From a virus, in the IMG/VR virus record IMGVR_UViG_3300049259_000288, positions 12,961 through 76,960 of that record: a stretch of DNA of 64,000 bases; one strand, written 5' to 3'. Positions 1,095 to 8,156 of the stretch are shown here, one piece after another (the stretch's first letter is position 1; the number at the start of each line of letters is the position of its first letter). A program made the position numbers and the translations under genes. The notes under the pieces are model-generated. The model did no database searches, had not been told where the DNA came from, and saw nothing but the letters and a program-made list of their open reading frames with translations.

Positions 1095-1366
1095 TGGTCC
1101 GCGTCGAGACCGTTGGCTCGGTGTGGCTGATCGACGAGACCGAGGGTCGCTACTGCCGCTTCCCGCTCGAGGAGAAGCCGCGCGAGCGGGCCGAGTGGGG
1201 CGACGAGCGCGCCGGTGACCTGCAGGACCTCGTATGGCACGACTTCGCCGGTCAGTGGCGCATCGACGACTACACCGGCCGGCTCTTCATCGAGACGCGT
1301 TGGAGCGAGGACGAGGGCTGGTGGGTGGTCACGGCCCCCCGTGCCCGCGTGGTCAGCGAGACGTGA
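1094..1366 (+). CDS. hypothetical protein
   Basis: TGATG coupling; Trp-rich. Confidence 0.6.
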   Translation: MVRVETVGSVWLIDETEGRYCRFPLEEKPRERAEWGDERAGDLQDLVWHDFAGQWRIDDYTGRLFIETRWSEDEGWWVVTAPRARVVSET

Positions 1367-2085
1367 GCGAGGACCTCTGGGCGCAGCGCGACGACCCGCG
1401 CGTGCGCGAGCGGCTGATCCTGCAGTACCAGCCGCTCGTCGAGCGTGTCGCCGGCGGCATGTCGACCGGCCTGCCGGCGAGCGTCGATCGAGCCGACCTC
1501 GTCGCCGACGGCATCTTCGGTCTGATCGAGGCGGTCGAGTCCTTCGATCCCTCCGTCGGCGCGCAGTTCGAGTCCTTCGCGATGCGTCGCATCCGTGGCG
1601 CCATCCTGGATGCGCTGCGCTCGATCGACTGGGCTCCCCGGACGATCAGGATGAACGCGCGCCAGCTCGAGCGCGTGCGCAGCGACCTGCAGGCCGAGCT
1701 CAATCGCACGCCGACCGAGGCCGAGATCGGCGCCGAGATGGGCATGAGCGAGGAGTCCGTGGCGCGCCTGATGGGCGAGGTCAACGTGGCTCAGGTGGGT
1801 CGCTTCGACGCCGAACTCGAGCAGTGGCACGGCTACGTGTCCCGCAGCGACAACCCCGGCGCTCCGGAGTTCCGGCTGTTCGACCCCGAGCGCCTGGCCG
1901 ACCTGCTGGCCGACGCCATCGTCGAGCTCACGGGCCGGGAGCGCGTGGTCTTCACGCTGTACTACGTGGAGGAGGTCACCTTCAAGGAGATCGGCGAGCT
2001 CCTCGGCGTGTCGAAGGTGCGCGTCAGCCAGCTGCGCGACGACGCCATGCTGCGCGTCAAGGAACACCTGGCGAAGGCGTCATGA
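1363..2085 (+). CDS. RNA polymerase sigma factor, FliA/WhiG (sigma-28) family
   Basis: RERLILQYQPLV...DLVADGIFGLIEAVESFDP...FESFAMRRIRGAILDALRSIDWAPR; region 4 LTGRERVVFTLYYVEEVTFKEIGELLGVSKVRVSQL. Confidence 0.95.
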   Translation: MSEDLWAQRDDPRVRERLILQYQPLVERVAGGMSTGLPASVDRADLVADGIFGLIEAVESFDPSVGAQFESFAMRRIRGAILDALRSIDWAPRTIRMNARQLERVRSDLQAELNRTPTEAEIGAEMGMSEESVARLMGEVNVAQVGRFDAELEQWHGYVSRSDNPGAPEFRLFDPERLADLLADAIVELTGRERVVFTLYYVEEVTFKEIGELLGVSKVRVSQLRDDAMLRVKEHLAKAS

Positions 2086-2210
2086 ACACGATCGAGAAGG
2101 CCATCTACACCGCCGACCGCGTGCTCACCGACAGGTTCCGCATCTGGTGGCGGCGGCGCCACGGCATCTACACCATCGGTCGATGGAAGTACCCGTGGCG
2201 ATCCTCGTGA
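2082..2210 (+). CDS. small basic hypothetical protein
   Basis: ATGA overlap with the sigma stop; 42 aa. Confidence 0.45.
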   Translation: MNTIEKAIYTADRVLTDRFRIWWRRRHGIYTIGRWKYPWRSS

Positions 2211-2226
2211 CGATCGCATAGACGCC
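2204..2226. repeat. left arm of long-range inverted repeat bounding the tRNA operon
   Basis: CTCGTGACGATCGCATAGACGCC is the reverse complement of 7541-7564 (14-bp perfect core, one mismatch, one bulge). Confidence 0.85.
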
Positions 2227-2302
2227 TGGCTCGGGGAGCACGGTTCGAACGTGCATCGTCCTGATCCAAAGTCAGGCGTCTTTCCGCTTAGACCACCCCC
2301 GA
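2227..2302 (-). tRNA. tRNA-Gln(TTG)
   Basis: CCTGA-CTTTGGA-TCAGG; TTCGAA T-loop; encoded CCA. Confidence 0.92.
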
Positions 2303-2380
2303 ACGAAGAACCAGCAAGGGGGTCCCTTTCGGGACCCCCAGGCCGGGATAGAGCACCGCCTCGCGGCGGGGGCTTCGTAG
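2303..2380 (-). ncRNA. structured spacer (two GNRA hairpins in a closing stem); ncRNA or processing element
   Basis: ACGAAG/CTTCGT closes CCGCC-GCGA-GGCGG and GGGGGTCCC-GAAA-GGGACCCCC. Confidence 0.4.
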
Positions 2381-2391
2381 CGCAGGTGATC

Positions 2392-2940
2392 CTACGCGAC
2401 GGCGCCGGCGACGTTGTCGATGGGGAGGTACGGGGCCCACGTCGGGTTGGCCTCGCGGATCCCCATGAGCAACCAGTACGTGCCCGTCGGGACGTAGGGC
2501 TTGAACGCGAGAACCCAGTCCATCTCGGCCAGCGTGTGAGCGGCCTTCCGCGCGTTGCACGGACGGCACGCGGCCACGACGTTGGTCCAGGTGTGCCGGC
2601 CACCCCGCGACCGCGGGTGAACATGGTCGACGGTGGTGCCGCGCCGCGGCGCCCACTGCCGTTCCCCGCGGTGGTTCTCGGGGATGCAGTAGGCGCACCG
2701 GTGCTCGTCACGCCGCAGGACCGCGGCGTTCGACAGCGCGATGCGCGCGGTGTACGGCACCTGCACGTACTTCCGCAGGCGGATCACCTCGGGCACGGGC
2801 ACCGAGGCGCGTGCTGAGTGGTAGGCGTCGTCACCGGCCTCGAGCACCTCGGCCTTCTCGGCCATGACGAGCACGACGGCCCGGCGGGTGTCGATGATCC
2901 GAAGCGGGGTGTAGTCAGCATTGATCAGCAGGGCCGCCAT
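2392..2940 (-). CDS. HNH endonuclease (actinobacterial McrA-like)
   Basis: LLINADYTPL...VLRRDEHRCAYC...TVDHVHPRSRGG.HTWTNVVAACRPCNARK. Confidence 0.92.
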   Translation of the reverse strand: MAALLINADYTPLRIIDTRRAVVLVMAEKAEVLEAGDDAYHSARASVPVPEVIRLRKYVQVPYTARIALSNAAVLRRDEHRCAYCIPENHRGERQWAPRRGTTVDHVHPRSRGGRHTWTNVVAACRPCNARKAAHTLAEMDWVLAFKPYVPTGTYWLLMGIREANPTWAPYLPIDNVAGAVA

Positions 2941-2956
2941 CTGCGTCTCCTTTCCT

Positions 2957-3688
2957 TCATCGTTGGCGCGCCCTTGTTTGCGCATCCAGTCGTTGTTGTC
3001 GTTGGACCGGGTCGGCCCAAACCTTCCGCTGTGCCTCGGCCATGCGCGCGCGGGTCTCCTCGCTCACGACCCGCGCGGTGTTCATCTGCGCGATGGCTTC
3101 CCGCTGCGTCTCGGTGCGCTCGTAGCGCCCGACGCCAGGCGAGGGTCCGTTCCTGGCGTAGGTTGCACGCAGGGACGCAGCGATCTTGGACCGGGTCTCA
3201 TCTGAGAGCCGTCGCCCGGTGTTCGACCTGGCGATCTTCGCGATGACTTCGGGCGCTCGTGGGCGGTCTTTGAGCGTCGCGCGTATCTTTTCGCGAACCA
3301 CCGTGGGCATGGGCCCCTTGGGCTTGCCCCTTTGCCAGGCTGACATCTTCGCCTTTGTTGACACGGAGTGGTGATGGCCTGTCAGACCTTCGCCGCCATC
3401 CGTGTGATTCGTGAGTCGGGCTACAGCGCGGTAGTGCTGGATCCAGTGGCGTTCGCGAGCGGCCCAGTCCTCGCGACCGTCTACGACCTCCACGAGCTGG
3501 ATGATCGGCGGCGAGTTGTCTGCGAGACATCTTCTGATCCACCGATCACGATGGGTGGAGGTTCGACCGGATCGCGCAGACCAAAGGTGGTAGGCGAGCC
3601 GGTCGCCCAGTGGCTTGACGGTCTTTCCGACGTACCGGATTTCGTTGGAACGCTGGTCGATGAGCACATAGATGGACGTGGGTTGCAC
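2957..3688 (-). CDS. GIY-YIG homing endonuclease with NUMOD3 repeats
   Basis: IYVLID...IRYVGKT...RL.YH...E..WI..Y...LTN.TDGGEG; HSVSTKAKMS and LSDETRSKIA repeats. Confidence 0.88.
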   Translation of the reverse strand: MQPTSIYVLIDQRSNEIRYVGKTVKPLGDRLAYHLWSARSGRTSTHRDRWIRRCLADNSPPIIQLVEVVDGREDWAARERHWIQHYRAVARLTNHTDGGEGLTGHHHSVSTKAKMSAWQRGKPKGPMPTVVREKIRATLKDRPRAPEVIAKIARSNTGRRLSDETRSKIAASLRATYARNGPSPGVGRYERTETQREAIAQMNTARVVSEETRARMAEAQRKVWADPVQRQQRLDAQTRARQR

Positions 3689-3696
3689 GATCTCCG

Positions 3697-3718
3697 ACAG
3701 TAAACGGAGGGTGTGACG
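3697..3718 (-). promoter_or_regulatory. PafBC/RecA-NDp-like promoter, leaderless GIY-YIG gene
   Basis: CGTCA-N11-TACTGT, 8 nt before GTG. Confidence 0.6.
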
Positions 3719-3723
3719 GAAAG

Positions 3724-3795
3724 CTCCGGGACGAGGACTTGAACCCCGTATTCGAGGTCCAGAACCTCGCGTGTTGCCGATTACACCATCCCGGA
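3724..3795 (-). tRNA. tRNA-Gln(CTG)
   Basis: CGAGG-TTCTGGA-CCTCG. Confidence 0.92.
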
Positions 3796-3802
3796 ATGAT
3801 GG

Positions 3803-3877
3803 TGGTCGGGAACCGGGGAGTCGAACCCCGCGCCTTCTGCCCCCCAGGCAGACGTGCTACCGCTGCACCAGTTCCCG
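3803..3877 (-). tRNA. tRNA-Pro(GGG)
   Basis: TCTGC-CTGGGGG-GCAGA; CCA. Confidence 0.92.
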
Positions 3878-3884
3878 TTGTCGA

Positions 3885-3959
3885 TGGTCAGGGTGACACG
3901 AGTCGAACGTGCATCCTCCTGCCCCCAAAGCAGGCGCGCGGCCTTTGCGCTACACCCTG
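3885..3959 (-). tRNA. tRNA-Pro(TGG)
   Basis: CCTGC-TTTGGGG-GCAGG; CCA. Confidence 0.92.
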
Positions 3960-3964
3960 TTGCG

Positions 3965-4039
3965 TCTAGCTGGGGAGATTTGAACTCCCGACCTCCTCGT
4001 CCCGAACGAGGCGCGCTGACCAAGCTGCGCTACAGCTAG
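3965..4039 (-). tRNA. tRNA-Pro(CGG)
   Basis: CCTCG-TTCGGGA-CGAGG. Confidence 0.92.
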
Positions 4040-4040
4040 T

Positions 4041-4115
4041 TGGCGTCCCCGGCACGACTCGAACGTGCGCGCTGCGATTTAGAAGATCGCGGCTCTGCCG
4101 CTGAGCTACGGGGAC
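4041..4115 (-). tRNA. tRNA-Arg(TCT)
   Basis: GCGAT-CTTCTAA-ATCGC; GCCA end. Confidence 0.92.
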
Positions 4116-4120
4116 TCGCG

Positions 4121-4193
4121 AGCCGGTGACAGGAGTCGAACCTGCGCGTTCCGCATTACGAGGGCGGTGCTCAGCCACCCGAGCATCACCGGC
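4121..4193 (-). tRNA. tRNA-Thr(CGT)
   Basis: CCGCC-CTCGTAA-TGCGG. Confidence 0.88.
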
Positions 4194-4235
4194 GAGAACT
4201 ACTAAATCGCGAAGAACTAGTAGAGAACTAGTAGT
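4194..4235. repeat. AT-rich spacer with three AGAACTAsTAr direct repeats
   Basis: gAGAACTACTAA...AGAACTAGTAG AGAACTAGTAG. Confidence 0.6.
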
Positions 4236-4238
4236 TGG

Positions 4239-4314
4239 TGGTACCCGCGGCGCGAGTCGAACGCGCAAACACCTGATCTTGAGTCAGGCGGCTCGCCGGA
4301 TGGCCTACGCGGGC
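4239..4314 (-). tRNA. tRNA-Leu(CAA), short variable loop
   Basis: CCTGA-CTCAAGA-TCAGG; ACCA. Confidence 0.88.
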
Positions 4315-4319
4315 TTGCG

Positions 4320-4394
4320 TGTCCACGACAGGCGTCGAACCTGCACGTTACGACGGTCTGAACGTCGCTCCTCTGCCAGTTGGGATACGTGGAC
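4320..4394 (-). tRNA. tRNA-Leu(CAG), short variable loop
   Basis: CGACG-TTCAGAC-CGTCG. Confidence 0.88.
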
Positions 4395-4395
4395 G

Positions 4396-4472
4396 TGGTA
4401 CTCGGGATGGGATTTGAACCCACACGCACCACGCTCTCGACGTGGCGGCTTTGCCGATTTGCCTACCCGAGC
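4396..4472 (-). tRNA. tRNA-Leu(GAG), short variable loop, C33
   Basis: CCACG-TCGAGAG-CGTGG; ACCA. Confidence 0.85.
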
Positions 4473-4479
4473 TTGGTGC

Positions 4480-4553
4480 TGGTGGACCCGACGGGAGTTG
4501 AACCCGCAATCGTCTCCTTGCAGGGGAGGTGCTAGCCGTTCAGCTTCGAGCCC
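4480..4553 (-). tRNA. tRNA-Ala(TGC), C33
   Basis: G3-U70 identity pair; loop CCTGCAA; ACCA. Confidence 0.88.
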
Positions 4554-4557
4554 GAGA

Positions 4558-4646
4558 TGGTTGGTGCGGCTGCCCACGCTCGTCAGCGCGAAGCATCACG
4601 GCAGGGGCTCTCCCGATGCGCTCGGGCGCCTTTCTCAGCCGCACCA
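4558..4646 (-). ncRNA. CCA-ended non-cloverleaf RNA with 11-bp terminal stem
   Basis: TGGTGCGGCTG/CAGCCGCACCA followed by ACCA; two internal hairpins; no T-loop or anticodon arm. Confidence 0.55.
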
Positions 4647-4647
4647 G

Positions 4648-4719
4648 TGGAGCCACGGAGAATCGAACTCCGACCTTCGCCATGCCATGGCGGCGTGCTG
4701 CCACTATCACTATGGCCCC
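4648..4719 (-). tRNA. tRNA-Ala(GGC)
   Basis: G3-U70; loop ATGGCAT. Confidence 0.9.
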
Positions 4720-4721
4720 GT

Positions 4722-4780
4722 AGAACGTGCTCGGCCCGGCTACGGATCCCTTGGGATTCCGACCGGGCCGAGACGCTTCT
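4722..4780 (-). ncRNA. long imperfect hairpin between tRNAs
   Basis: CTCGGCCCGG/CCGGGCCGAG 10-bp core, extended at both ends. Confidence 0.4.
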
Positions 4781-4788
4781 CTCGCAAA

Positions 4789-4867
4789 TGGTGGCAGGGA
4801 GAGGATTTGAACCTCCGACCTCCGGGTTATGGGCCCGGCGAGCACATCCAGGCTGCTCCACCCTGCG
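4789..4867 (-). tRNA. initiator tRNA-fMet(CAT)
   Basis: 1:72 mismatch; GGG/CCC anticodon stem; loop CCCATAA. Confidence 0.9.
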
Positions 4868-4912
4868 TCGCTCTTGAGACGATACGCCTTGGCGCCGGCG
4901 TCGTCCAGTGTT

Positions 4913-4986
4913 TGGTACCGGTGCTCGGAGTCGAACCGAAGTCCGCGCGGGTATGGGCCGCACGTCGCACGCCTGTCATCACCGGC
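4913..4986 (-). tRNA. tRNA-Met or Ile2 (CAT), atypical D-arm
   Basis: TGCGG-CCCATAC-CCGCG; TTCGAC; ACCA. Confidence 0.75.
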
Positions 4987-4987
4987 A

Positions 4988-5013
4988 TGAACCTTCTCGT
5001 CGATGTCGCCGAT
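4988..5013 (+). promoter_or_regulatory. sigma-28-type promoter firing antisense inside the tRNA array
   Basis: TGAA-N16-GCCGATCG; GTG at 5023. Confidence 0.7.
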
Positions 5014-5022
5014 CGACGGGAT

Positions 5023-5145
5023 GTGAAGCTGAGCTCGCGTGCGGTCACCAACATCCTGACGATCATCGTGCTGATCGTGGCGCTGCTGCCGCTCGAGGTG
5101 TGGCTCCTCGACAACATCTTTCACTTCGGATACAGCGGCGACTAG
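5023..5145 (+). CDS. small single-pass membrane protein
   Basis: VKLSSRAVTNILTIIVLIVALLPLEVWLLDNIFHFGYSGD; fills the gap between two tRNAs. Confidence 0.65.
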   Translation: MKLSSRAVTNILTIIVLIVALLPLEVWLLDNIFHFGYSGD

Positions 5146-5146
5146 A

Positions 5147-5220
5147 TGGGGTGACCGAGCGGAATTGAACCGCCATCACCAGGGCCACAACCTGGCGCTC
5201 TACCATTGAGCTACGGCCAC
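5147..5220 (-). tRNA. tRNA-His(GTG)
   Basis: CCAGG-TTGTGGC-CCTGG; C73 plus CCA; no genomic G-1. Confidence 0.92.
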
Positions 5221-5222
5221 AG

Positions 5223-5295
5223 TAGGCGTGGGGGGAGTCGAACCCCCGCAACACAGCGTGTGGAGCTGCTGCTCTGGCCACTGAGCTACACGCCC
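5223..5295 (-). tRNA. tRNA-Val(CAC), C33
   Basis: GCAGC-TCCACAC-GCTGT. Confidence 0.88.
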
Positions 5296-5304
5296 GAGAA
5301 CTGC

Positions 5305-5381
5305 TGGTGCCGGCAGCGGGGATCGAACCCGCGATGCTGTCCGCTTAAAAGGCGGCTGCCTTGCCACTCGGCCACACCGGC
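5305..5381 (-). tRNA. tRNA-Lys(TTT)
   Basis: CCGC-CTTTTAA-GCGG; ACCA. Confidence 0.82.
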
Positions 5382-5389
5382 ATCGTTTC

Positions 5390-5465
5390 TGGTACGCCAT
5401 CAGGGAGTCGAACCCCGGACCCTCTCCTCATCAGGGAGATGCTCTCACCACTGAGCTAATGGCGC
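5390..5465 (-). tRNA. tRNA-Ile(GAT)
   Basis: TCTCC-CTGATGA-GGAGA. Confidence 0.9.
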
Positions 5466-5466
5466 T

Positions 5467-5542
5467 TGGTAGTCGCGACTGGATTTGAACCAGCGACCTC
5501 CTGCGTGTCGAGCAGGCGCTCTAGCCACTGAGCTACGCGACC
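5467..5542 (-). tRNA. tRNA-Val(GAC), C33
   Basis: CCTGC-TCGACAC-GCAGG. Confidence 0.9.
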
Positions 5543-5543
5543 A

Positions 5544-5620
5544 TGGTGGAACCGACTGGCGTCGAACCAGCACCCTTCCGGGCTTCAACCGGACGCTCTC
5601 CCTGCCTGAGCTTCGGTTCC
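5544..5620 (-). tRNA. tRNA-Phe(GAA)
   Basis: TCCGG-TTGAAGC-CCGGA. Confidence 0.9.
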
Positions 5621-5624
5621 ATGA

Positions 5625-5676
5625 GGCGCTTGCCCCAGAGTCGCACTGGGTGAAACGGGCTCGAAGCCCAAGCGCC
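5625..5676 (-). ncRNA. compact three-way-junction RNA between tRNAs
   Basis: GGCGCTT/AAGCGCC closes GGGCT-TCG-AGCCC and CCCAG-N7-CTGGG. Confidence 0.5.
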
Positions 5677-5678
5677 AG

Positions 5679-5752
5679 AGCCGGTGACAGGAATCGAACC
5701 CGCGTCCTTCTGCTTACAGGGCAGGTGCTCAACCAACGTGAGCTACACCGGC
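5679..5752 (-). tRNA. tRNA-Thr(TGT), C33
   Basis: CTGC-CCTGTAA-GCAG. Confidence 0.88.
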
Positions 5753-5756
5753 GAGA

Positions 5757-5831
5757 TGGAGCGGCTGACGCGAATCGAACGCGCATCACATGCTTGGAAG
5801 GCACGAGCTCTAGCCATTGAGCTACAACCGC
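5757..5831 (-). tRNA. tRNA-Gly(TCC)
   Basis: CGTGC-CTTCCAA-GCATG; TCCA. Confidence 0.92.
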
Positions 5832-5832
5832 A

Positions 5833-5909
5833 TGGAGTGTGTGACCGGGTTCGAACCGGCGACCTCGACGTTGGCAACGTCGCGCTCTGACCAACTGAGC
5901 TACACACAC
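5833..5909 (-). tRNA. tRNA-Gly(GCC)
   Basis: CGACG-TTGCCAA-CGTCG; TCCA. Confidence 0.92.
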
Positions 5910-5913
5910 GCGA

Positions 5914-5989
5914 TGGAGAGCGTGACCGGAATCGAACCGGTGAATGGACTGGGTTGCAACCAGCCGCCTTCCCACTTGGCTACACGCCC
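5914..5989 (-). tRNA. tRNA-Cys(GCA)
   Basis: GCTGG-TTGCAAC-CCAGT; U73 plus CCA. Confidence 0.92.
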
Positions 5990-5993
5990 ACGG

Positions 5994-6068
5994 CCCCGAG
6001 ACGAGGACTCGAACCCCGCTCCTTCCGCGTTAACAGCGCGGCGTCGTCGCCCGGACGACTCTCTCGGG
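5994..6068 (-). tRNA. tRNA-Asn(GTT)
   Basis: CCGCG-CTGTTAA-CGCGG. Confidence 0.88.
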
Positions 6069-6069
6069 T

Positions 6070-6145
6070 TGGTAGTCCGTACGAGATTCGAACTCGTGAT
6101 CTTCTGGTTGAGAACCAGATGTGTTCACCCCTACACCAACGGACC
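6070..6145 (-). tRNA. tRNA-Glu(CTC)
   Basis: TCTGG-TTCTCAA-CCAGA. Confidence 0.9.
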
Positions 6146-6246
6146 ATGTGCGCCGTTGACGACGTGCGCCGGCGCTGCGCTTGCCATCGAAGAGCACGGC
6201 CCTGTGCGGCCCGGAACCGTGTGGCATCTCGTCGATCGTCGCCGAG
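6146..6246 (-). ncRNA. possible structured spacer RNA
   Basis: GACGAT/GTCGTC, TGCCA/TGGCA and CACGGTTC/GGGCCGTG nested stems. Confidence 0.35.
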
Positions 6247-6319
6247 CACTCCGTACCGGATTCGAACCGGTGCCGTGACCTTGAAAGGGTCGTGTCCTTG
6301 GCCGCTAGACGAACGGAGC
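6247..6319 (-). tRNA. tRNA-Glu(TTC)
   Basis: GACC-CTTTCAA-GGTC. Confidence 0.9.
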
Positions 6320-6320
6320 A

Positions 6321-6406
6321 TGGCGGAAGGTGGAGGAATTGAACCCCTGCGCTTGCACGCACCACTGGCTTCGAACCAGCTCGCCTCACCGTCGGCGGCA
6401 CCTTCC
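6321..6406 (-). tRNA. tRNA-Ser(CGA) with 8/4 acceptor/T-stem fold
   Basis: GGAAGGTG/CACCTTCC 8-bp acceptor; 4-bp T-stem GGGG/CCTC; long variable arm; G73. Confidence 0.8.
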
Positions 6407-6411
6407 TCGAG

Positions 6412-6499
6412 CGGAGCGAGTGAGATTCGAACTCACGGCGCATTGCTGCGCGCACGTCTTTCCAGAACGGCCCGTTCAGCCAGACTCCGGCATCGCTCC
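6412..6499 (-). tRNA. tRNA-Ser(GGA)
   Basis: Loop CTGGAAA; long variable arm. Confidence 0.9.
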
Positions 6500-6503
6500 G
6501 AGA

Positions 6504-6593
6504 TGGCGGATCGTGGAGGGCTCGAACCCCCGCCAGTTCCTCACTGACGCCCCGCGCTTCAAACGCAGTTCGCCCCCACGGGCGGCACGATCC
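6504..6593 (-). tRNA. tRNA-Ser(TGA) with 8/4 acceptor/T-stem fold
   Basis: GGATCGTG/CACGATCC 8-bp acceptor; T-stem GGGG/CCTC; loop TTTGAAG. Confidence 0.8.
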
Positions 6594-6597
6594 TCGA

Positions 6598-6688
6598 TGG
6601 CGGAGACGGTGGGATTTGAACCCACGGCGCATCACTGCGCGCACGACTTAGCAGGTCGGCCCGATGAACCAGACTCTGGCACGTCTCC
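6598..6688 (-). tRNA. tRNA-Ser(GCT)
   Basis: Loop CTGCTAA; long variable arm; GCCA. Confidence 0.9.
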
Positions 6689-6692
6689 GAGA

Positions 6693-6768
6693 TGGCGTCC
6701 TCGGCGCGACTCGAACGCGCGACCTGCGCGTTAGGAGCGCGCTGCTCTCGCCACTGAGCTACGAGGAC
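6693..6768 (-). tRNA. tRNA-Arg(CCT)
   Basis: GCGCG-CTCCTAA-CGCGC. Confidence 0.92.
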
Positions 6769-6769
6769 G

Positions 6770-6846
6770 TGGAGCCGAAGTCGGGAATCGAACCCGAGGC
6801 CTCACCCGTACCAGGGGTGCGCTCTACCAAACTGAGCTACGTCGGC
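6770..6846 (-). tRNA. tRNA-Thr(GGT)
   Basis: CACCC-CTGGTAC-GGGTG. Confidence 0.92.
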
Positions 6847-6847
6847 G

Positions 6848-6922
6848 TGGCGCCCACGACAGGACTCGAACCTGCAGCCTCGACCTCCGGAGGGTCGCGC
6901 TCTCCCATTGAGCTACGTGAGC
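6848..6922 (-). tRNA. tRNA-Arg(CCG)
   Basis: CGACC-CTCCGGA-GGTCG. Confidence 0.92.
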
Positions 6923-6949
6923 TACGTGCTACGTGAGCATCGTGCATTG

Positions 6950-7021
6950 CGTCCCAGAGAGGGGTCGAACCTCCAACCTACGGCTCCGTAGACCGTCGCT
7001 CTTCCATTGAGCTACCGGGAC
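6950..7021 (-). tRNA. tRNA-Arg(ACG)
   Basis: ACGGT-CTACGGA-GCCGT. Confidence 0.92.
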
Positions 7022-7122
7022 TCGCGGCGGGCGCTCTGCCACAGAGCTTCGCCGTCCTCGGATGCTGCGCGCAGCATCGTCATCGAACGGCGGCAGGAAT
7101 TGAACCTGCGCCTCCCGCCTCG
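7022..7122 (-). ncRNA. circularly permuted tRNA mimic (YrlA-like domain order)
   Basis: The 3' half (GCGGG, T-arm GCAGG-TTCAATT-CCTGC, CGCCGTT) precedes the 5' half (GACGGCG, D-arm GCTC..GAGC, CCCGC); the acceptor stem is capped by a hairpin. Confidence 0.8.
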
Positions 7123-7198
7123 CGCGGCTGACGGGATTTGAACCCGCGATCTCTTCCTTGACAGGGAAGTGAGGACGACCAGACTCCTCCACAGCTGC
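7123..7198 (-). tRNA. tRNA-Asp(GTC)
   Basis: CTTCC-CTGTCAA-GGAAG. Confidence 0.9.
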
Positions 7199-7203
7199 TT
7201 GGG

Positions 7204-7278
7204 TGCGCGATCAGGGACTCGAACCCTGCCTATGTCGGTTTAAGAGACCGCTGGTCCAGCCATCTGACCAAATCGCGC
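7204..7278 (-). tRNA. tRNA-Lys(CTT)
   Basis: CGGT-CTCTTAA-ACCG. Confidence 0.88.
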
Positions 7279-7283
7279 GTGAG

Positions 7284-7424
7284 GTGCGTGGAGTGGGCGC
7301 GGCGTGTGTGCCTGTTCTTCGATCGGTTTGGAACCCGGCCAGGCCCTCTGTCACGAGAGCCCACTTCCGTCGGTGACACGAACCGGGTGCGTTCTCGCAC
7401 GCCTCCATGTCGATCTCCACGCAC
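7284..7424 (-). ncRNA. ~140-nt rod-like RNA with potential pseudoknot
   Basis: 10-bp terminal stem GTGCGTGGAG/CTCCACGCAC; GGCGTG/CACGCC; loop GTGACA is complementary to upstream TGTCAC. Confidence 0.6.
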
Positions 7425-7427
7425 GAG

Positions 7428-7507
7428 TGGGCCCGGAGGGAATCGAACCCCCTGTGTCATTCGACGTCTGGGTTACAACCAGGTGCGCCCCATGGCGCGT
7501 CGGACCC
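7428..7507 (-). tRNA. tRNA-Tyr(GTA)
   Basis: CTGG-TTGTAAC-CCAG; variable arm GTC-GAAT-GAC. Confidence 0.85.
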
Positions 7508-7540
7508 GTGTGGCGAGGGTTGGCGCCCTCGCCCTATCTC

Positions 7541-7564
7541 GGCGTCTATGCGATTGTCAACGAG
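7541..7564. repeat. right arm of long-range inverted repeat; boxA-like on the minus strand
   Basis: Minus strand GCTCGTTGACAATCGCATAGACGCC pairs with the 2204-2226 arm. Confidence 0.85.
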
Positions 7565-7576
7565 CTGGTACTCAAG

Positions 7577-7648
7577 CAGGGGCGGGAGGGATCGAACCTC
7601 CGTTGCCGGTTTTGGAGACCGGAGTCCGTTCCACTGGACCACGCCCCC
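7577..7648 (-). tRNA. tRNA-Trp(CCA)
   Basis: CCGGT-CTCCAAA-ACCGG. Confidence 0.92.
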
Positions 7649-7652
7649 TGGG

Positions 7653-7907
7653 TGTTGCTGCGGTGAAAGGCAGCCGAGCAGCGGCGCCGGGTATCCCGAC
7701 GGCTGATCCGCTTCACTGGCTTGCCCTTCGATGTCCTGCGGTCTGTCGACCTACAGGTTCGACGGCGTTACCAGCTAACGCGGGTCCCCGGCTTATTCGC
7801 CGGGATGCGCTTGGCTTCGTACGTCACGCACGAAGGAAGCGCCTCGGGCGCGCCGGCGGACAGAGCGAATCGCTCTGTCCTCGCATCGGCGTGTGCCCGG
7901 TACAACA
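7653..7907 (-). ncRNA. ornate ~255-nt multibranched leader RNA of the tRNA operon
   Basis: Terminal TGTTG/CAACA stem, nested GCCGA/TCGGC, GCCGG/CCGGC, CCCGA/TCGGG, and at least five hairpins. Confidence 0.65.
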
Positions 7908-7970: not shown

Positions 7971-8156
7971 ATGAGGCTCATCGACCGGGCGACCGGCCAG
8001 CCGCCGGTGCTCCGGAACGGCTACTCCTTCTCCATCGAGACCATGCTCATCGAGGGCACGGAAGTCCCCGACGGCGTCGTCGGCGAGGACGTCGCGACCG
8101 CTCAGTCCTTGCGGACCTCCACGTACTTCACCTCGTACCGTGCACCAGGTGGGTGA
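7971..8156 (+). CDS. hypothetical protein
   Basis: Divergent from the tRNA operon; GC3-biased codons. Confidence 0.5.
   Translation: MRLIDRATGQPPVLRNGYSFSIETMLIEGTEVPDGVVGEDVATAQSLRTSTYFTSYRAPGG

Follow-up and report, generated by a model that had tools for sequence, protein, structure and literature searches.

A putative rRNA-operon-like leader-trailer helix with a boxA-like motif around the tRNA array of an uncultured soil phage

In Escherichia coli, a leader-trailer helix of more than 17 bp is essential for 30S biogenesis, and it has been suggested that boxA, tethered through NusB, keeps the leader strand at the RNA exit channel for as long as the trailer has not emerged (PMC10250234). 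Here we describe a locus of similar layout in an uncultured soil phage, the transfer RNA (tRNA) operon within bases 12961-76960 of IMG/VR virus record IMGVR_UViG_3300049259_000288, a stretch of 64,000 nt that we call the window. The full record comes from a soil metagenome, is 76,960 nt long with 68% G+C, and is estimated to be 73% complete. An original prediction, drawn from the letters of the window, had reported an inverted repeat around the tRNA array and likened the array to a ribosomal RNA (rrn) operon. Judging from the sequence and position of the repeat, we consider it probable that its two arms are the strands of one rrn-style long-range RNA helix in the minus-strand tRNA precursor, associated with a boxA-like element.

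The likeness to rrn operons concerns both the order of the elements and their size. In E. coli rrn and in the window, a boxA-type motif appears early in a long untranslated transcript (PMC10250234, PMC2724277), tRNAs precede boxA (in rrn, in the spacer before the 23S), a strand beside boxA has its complement kilobases away, immediately behind the final mature RNA, and a local leader hairpin separates the 5' strand from the RNA that is enclosed first. The helices are also of comparable length, 30-44 bp for 16S and 27 bp for 23S, and likewise about 20-30 bp here. The differences lie in what is enclosed and in where boxA sits. Each rrn helix encloses a single rRNA in a loop of 1.5-2.9 kb, whereas the loop of the window is 5.3 kb long and holds 37 tRNAs and two protein genes. 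E. coli boxA lies 18-19 nt upstream of boxC and the helix, whereas the boxA-like motif of the window lies mostly inside the helix and differs from rrn boxA at one U. Moreover, the RNAs enclosed in the window would be cut out singly by RNase P, so that the 5' strand is not covalently held, unlike in rrn. The tRNA cluster of phage T4, with its stable RNAs C and D, resembles the window in being a polycistronic phage tRNA precursor with extra structured RNAs and host RNase processing; to our knowledge, neither boxA nor a long-range closing helix has been described there, in contrast to the window. As in the window, boxA heads a long non-coding array that without it would be open to Rho in the suhB leader and in the clustered regularly interspaced short palindromic repeat (CRISPR) arrays of Gammaproteobacteria, although the text consulted describes no closing helix for these cases, whereas the window has a putative one (PMC13753749). 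Our literature search found no paper on boxA or closing helices in phage tRNA arrays.

The inverted repeat itself is real, with 14 perfect base pairs plus 8 more and with both sequences exactly as first quoted (Table 1). The core of 14 perfect bp pairs 7554-7541 with 2226-2213; beyond an A.C mismatch come 4 bp, and beyond a bulged U at 7560 another 4 bp. The predicted helix has 22 bp and -36 kcal/mol and would close the 5.3-kb loop, and a possible extension would bring it to 29 bp and -44 to -46 kcal/mol. This exceeds the 17-20 bp expected of an rrn-type leader-trailer helix. Both arms belong to the same minus-strand transcript and lie in the spacers bounding 37 tRNAs, as the strands of such a helix should: the 5' arm in the 68-nt spacer between tRNA-Trp and tRNA-Tyr, and the 3' arm in the 141-nt trailer spacer. 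The claim that the 3' arm comes immediately behind the CCA of the last tRNA was borne out by the ARAGORN placement of tRNA-Gln(UUG). All 38 tRNA genes are carried by the minus strand of 2227-7648 (37 called by ARAGORN and one by Rfam); the total of 38 first given thus stands, but the loop holds 37 rather than 38, because tRNA-Trp lies upstream of the 5' arm. The 38th tRNA, at 4483-4553 on the minus strand, was found by Rfam only (46 bits) and is missed by ARAGORN.

The 5' arm also bears a resemblance to boxA. The motif GCTCGTTGACAA agrees with the consensus GYTCTTTRACAA in 11 of its 12 positions and is the sole site with at most one mismatch in the 64-kb window, where 0.15 would be expected. 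It is read in the sense direction and occupies the first operon spacer, early in the long untranslated transcript. In RNA form the element reads GCUCGUUGACAA; in E. coli, rrn boxA reads UGCUCUUUA followed by the spacer ACAAUUUA (PMC2724277). Two promoter readings of the 5' arm were rejected, that of a sigma-70 promoter because TTGACA is part of the boxA-like motif and no promoter is called there, and that of a sigma-28 promoter because TGAC and GCCGAG stand 12 nt apart, against a proposed 16 nt.

The position of the repeat exceeds chance. Among the 43 non-coding segments (7.3 kb in total), the arm pair is the top inverted repeat between segments, and shuffles of these segments match its score anywhere in just 5% of trials. 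We estimate the chance of so strong a match between the 141-nt and the 68-nt segments at ~2e-5, the product of 0.06 expected hits and the 3.6e-4 share that these two segments have in all segment pairs. An agnostic search of all 20.4 kb downstream for partners of the 58 nt that surround the boxA-like motif ranked 2204-2226 first with a score of 36, against 22 for the next real match, while the 300 shuffles gave a mean of 23.2 +/- 2.7 and a maximum of 35, so that none reached 36. The 14-mer core occurs at two places only in the 77-kb record, namely the two arms.

We also found the same design in other phages. Viral contigs were scanned for a tRNA T-arm followed by GYTCTTTRACAA within 10-40 nt, an arrangement present at 120 or more IMG/VR loci, with about 70 at ARAGORN-confirmed tRNAs among the matches listed. 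The loci with canonical boxA (L173-L291) range from 27 to 65% G+C, and boxA usually follows the first 1-14 tRNAs of the array. For each of 50 loci with at least 1.5 kb downstream, the 58 nt at boxA were matched to their best inverted partner, which reached z>3 in 8 loci, compared with 0/50 in a reversed-query control and 3/50 in a direct-repeat control. Five of the eight form one family (L221, L220, L210, L248, L289), in which a helix of 26-28 bp wraps ~585 nt free of tRNAs and has as its 5' strand boxA itself, located after the tRNA; L198 is a similar wrapped case with 785 nt enclosed.

In four arrays, by contrast with this tRNA-free family, sequence beside boxA pairs with a site at or near the array end and encloses tRNAs; two of these arrays were examined over their full sequence. 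L182 (37% G+C) has 29/32 bp closing a 4.5-kb loop with 8 tRNAs, its 3' arm lying just before a classical terminator. L181 (42% G+C) pairs over 15 bp plus one U.G across 5.9 kb and 22 tRNAs and is marginal (z 3.3). G001/L172 has 21 bp plus one U.G and a 2-nt bulge around 8.1 kb and 27 tRNAs (z 7), and G003/L293, an array of 41 tRNAs at 65% G+C, has 17/19 bp around 4.5 kb and 36-37 tRNAs. The geometry of G003/L293 is that of the window: boxA follows the fourth tRNA, the arm comes directly after boxA, and the partner adjoins the last tRNA. The arm sequences are wholly different between these phages, and it is complementarity and position that are kept. Capsid and sigma searches gave no kinship of the window phage with G001 or G003, so the comparison reveals a recurrent design and not covariation within a lineage. 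The arrays of the window, G001 and G003 all begin with tRNA-Trp and have boxA beside tRNA-Tyr, and those of the window and G001 end with tRNA-Gln(UUG). In a further locus (L300, G011:130000-149999; ~173 nt after boxA), one tRNA is enclosed by a perfect 19-bp inverted repeat that begins 10 nt inside boxA, and the array goes on with 20 more tRNAs.

The array had no megablast match in the phage collection, and an exact scan of viral contigs for the 14-mer returned single, chance-level matches only. Searches for kin were anchored on the sigma factor, the product of a 295-amino-acid open reading frame and a 643-amino-acid protein; they yielded nothing closer than 40-42% protein identity in phages, viral contigs and Joint Genome Institute (JGI) metagenome contigs. 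Sigma relatives at 59-73% identity came from Logan and ENA soil contigs only, up to about 17 kb in length, among them Logan contigs of 12.4 kb and 17.3 kb. L142 is the only anchor match with a tRNA array beside the sigma gene, and its layout differs. We compared contigs of four further runs (soil, groundwater) with the region and obtained fragments only. In two of these runs (X3, X4) the fragments are near-identical to the window, and in another (X2) they represent a relative ~90% identical to it; among the matches listed for the four runs, no contig bridges either arm to its flank. No RNA sequencing runs with this sequence were listed.

Several observations weigh against the reading of the arms as an rrn-type helix. 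The core of the 5' arm carries two adjacent substitutions in the X2 relative (7552 G>A and 7553 A>G), which would leave a C.A mismatch and a U.G pair if the 3' arm is unchanged there. Over the five tRNA-enclosing helices, transition mismatches divide into 2 G.U and 3 A.C, and the single mismatch of the window is A.C, so there is no RNA-specific signature. A closing helix was not found in six other large boxA arrays (L294-L299), and about half of the boxA arrays with full downstream sequence lack one; the design is thus recurrent but not universal. The boxA-like motif has a G at the first U of its U run, the equivalent of E. coli U-139 (checked on rrnB with the spacer ACAA). This G is not the known inactivating mutation of E. 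coli boxA, U-141G (PMC10250234), since U-141 lies two positions upstream of the U-139 equivalent, and the deviation therefore speaks neither against the motif nor for it. The helix covers 9/12 nucleotides of the motif, whereas in the four other tRNA-enclosing helices the arm starts at or after the 3' end of boxA and leaves its core free. The 5' arm would also be cut away from the array by RNase P well before transcription reaches the 3' arm, and pairing would then need tethering or have to act in trans. The likening of the array to an rrn operon holds in part: the resemblance to boxA and the layout recurring in other phages stand behind it, and the G in the U run of the motif does not.

As a bare repeat, moreover, the arm pair is ordinary. 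The 68% GC genome has 115 exact inverted repeats of at least 14 nt (58 in dinucleotide shuffles), and the gapped score of the arms ranks only ~13th-20th genome-wide, with about 20 pairs equalling it. RNAduplex energies of the trailer against all genome windows do not single out the leader either, as many GC-rich windows reach -50 kcal/mol or lower. These figures, the A.C mismatch, the two changed core bases of the X2 relative and the selection of the repeat after the fact in the original prediction would all suit a repeat without function, whether it matches by chance, the genome being GC-rich, or stems from recombination as a neutral inverted duplication of ~25-40 nt. We hold this to be improbable, given that the arms fall in the two short spacers bounding the array, that the repeat coincides with the only boxA-like site of the window, and that the same geometry is found in unrelated phages, against 0/50 in the reversed-query control.

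Folding predictions bear on how the arms might act. The 5' arm is largely unpaired in the local fold of the leader spacer, while the 3' arm also forms the 5' half of a terminator-like hairpin, its first 11 nt pairing with GUGUAGAUGCC (2173-2163). Since three of these pairs are G.U, the hairpin would work only in minus-strand RNA; it has no U tract. The trailer hairpin and the long-range helix compete for the 3' arm, and in a joint fold of leader spacer and trailer the long-range duplex is more stable than the local structures by ~18 kcal/mol. The arms might pair as RNA but serve as a switch, stripping boxA from the Nus factors, ending antitermination, deciding the fate of the trailer hairpin and controlling read-through into the sigma gene, which converges on the array ~140 nt away. 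The burial of the boxA-like motif in the helix, the strand-specific hairpin built on the 3' arm, and the partners that cover boxA in the tRNA-free L221 family and in L198 are consistent with such a switch, yet we regard it as unlikely. The four other helices that enclose tRNAs spare the boxA core, the trailer hairpin lacks the U tract of a terminator, and the long-range duplex would block the hairpin, which predicts read-through rather than termination and leaves the logic of the switch ambiguous.

It is very unlikely that the arms act as DNA, whether as the inverted ends of a tRNA cassette that moves or inverts or as recombination sites for the HNH or GIY-YIG endonucleases: although they can be read as inward-facing 23/24-bp terminal inverted repeats around a minus-strand island with plus-strand neighbours on both sides and homing endonuclease genes within, Pfam finds no transposase, integrase or invertase in the loop or flanks (only HNH, GIY-YIG/NUMOD3 and, outside, sigma), tRNA-Trp and the operon leader lie outside the repeat, and in other phages the same design goes with tRNA ends and with boxA, a signal that acts as RNA. 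Transposon ends in particular were rejected for lack of a target-site duplication: no direct repeat is shared between ...GGCGATC on the left and CTGGTAC... on the right. The matches listed show no strand-switching joints at the arms, a weak argument in that it comes from contigs only. We know of no homing endonucleases that use terminal repeats. In the X2 relative the GIY-YIG/NUMOD3 gene is absent or replaced and its neighbours are kept, which fits an independently mobile homing endonuclease gene. The cassette offered as an alternative in the original prediction is thus unsupported, for want of a recombinase or transposase in the loop, for want of a target-site duplication, and with GIY-YIG alone absent or replaced in X2. 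In this relative (record 2), the distance from the HNH gene (2543-2901) to the tRNAs at 3915 is ~438 nt, compared with 1014 nt in the window. In one X2 contig, position 1922, which belongs to the 3' portion of the sigma gene, is followed after 10 other letters by 8533; this joint is not at the arms and would skip the whole tRNA operon, which may reflect an array-less relative or an artefact of short similarities.

The reading that we favour, an rrn-like leader-trailer helix, takes the arms as RNA because of their link to boxA, which is an RNA signal, their link to tRNA 3' ends, the accessibility of the 5' arm and the published model of NusB tethering. Transcription would start upstream of the structured leader and pass through tRNA-Trp, after which the boxA-like element would be made, joined to the 5' strand of the helix. 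By analogy with rrn, we infer that RNase III and Nus factors are involved. The element would recruit host NusB/NusE, which may shield the long untranslated transcript from Rho and hold the 5' strand by a tether close to RNA polymerase up to the time that the 3' strand is made. Once the 37 tRNAs and the two homing endonuclease genes have been transcribed, the 3' strand would follow directly on the CCA of the last tRNA and pair with the 5' strand, the long-range helix presumably outcompeting the local trailer hairpin. The resulting 22-bp helix (up to 29 bp with the extension) would close the 5.3-kb loop as in the 16S and 23S rRNA precursors. Host RNase III might then cut it, which would separate the array from the flanking RNA and open the last tRNA to exonucleases at its 3' end.

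The surroundings of the two arms are listed in Table 1. To the right of the array, plus-strand genes begin near 7971. The consensus promoter scan of the leader region called no promoter, and no Rfam family among those searched matched the leader at 7649-7790. Flanking open reading frames other than the sigma gene had no Pfam family match. The nearest cellular matches of the phage FliA/WhiG-type sigma factor, at ~40-45% identity, are annotated FliA, and the host is probably a high-GC soil bacterium.

Table 1. Features of the tRNA operon and its flanks, in window coordinates.
Feature	Position	Strand	Description
5' arm	7541-7564	-	Reads CTCGTTGACAATCGCATAGACGCC (7564-7541); 14-nt perfect core 7541-7554
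3' arm	2204-2226	-	Reads GGCGTCTATGCGATCGTCACGAG (2226-2204); starts right behind the CCA of tRNA-Gln(UUG)
boxA-like motif GCTCGTTGACAA	7565-7554	-	11/12 to consensus; within the 5' arm, 10 nt after tRNA-Trp
Possible 5'-strand extension GAGUACC	~7567-7573	-	7 bp with 2188-2194 beyond an 8-nt bulge (cofold, duplexfold); weak alone
Strong local hairpin GGCGAGGG-cgccaa-CCCUCGCC	7512-7533	-	Between 5' arm and tRNA-Tyr; resembles a leader helix
Terminator-like trailer hairpin	2163-2226	-	64 nt; predicted fold, -40.4 kcal/mol, z -2.7
Enclosed loop	2227-7507	-	37 tRNA genes plus HNH and GIY-YIG/NUMOD3 endonuclease genes
tRNA-Trp	7576-7648	-	Heads the operon; outside the helix, on the upstream side of the 5' arm
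tRNA-Tyr	7427-7507	-	Second tRNA; first one enclosed by the helix
tRNA-Gln(UUG)	2227-2302	-	Last tRNA; its CCA directly adjoins the 3' arm
HNH endonuclease gene	2392-2985	-	Inside the loop; Pfam
GIY-YIG/NUMOD3 endonuclease gene	2957-3688	-	Inside the loop; Pfam
FliA/WhiG-type sigma factor gene	1363-2085	+	Convergent; 3' end faces the trailer, ~140 nt from the array
Non-coding leader upstream of tRNA-Trp	7649-7790	-	Structured; -66.9 kcal/mol, z -3.5
Promoter-like TTGACT-N19-CATGAT	7946-7916	-	Candidate, read from sequence

A wider version of this account, which we think rather unlikely, would have large phage tRNA arrays in general be miniature rRNA operons, with loop closure here resetting antitermination at the array end and so protecting the convergent sigma gene. 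In such arrays, Nus factors recruited by boxA would keep the 5' strand tethered at RNA polymerase while tens of tRNAs are looped out, and the helix would form once the last tRNA is finished; in the window it would also swallow the boxA-like motif and compete with the trailer hairpin.

Little is known about how phages transcribe and process untranslated arrays of 30-40 tRNAs that extend over several kilobases. If such arrays borrow the host rRNA machinery, with Nus antitermination, a leader-trailer helix and RNase III, their escape from Rho would be explained, and the role of leader-trailer helices would reach beyond ribosome assembly. Phage tRNA operons would then have a boundary rule, with boxA after an early tRNA and its neighbour's complement behind the last tRNA. 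Because the design recurs in unrelated phages, the idea could be tested in any cultured phage with the same layout.

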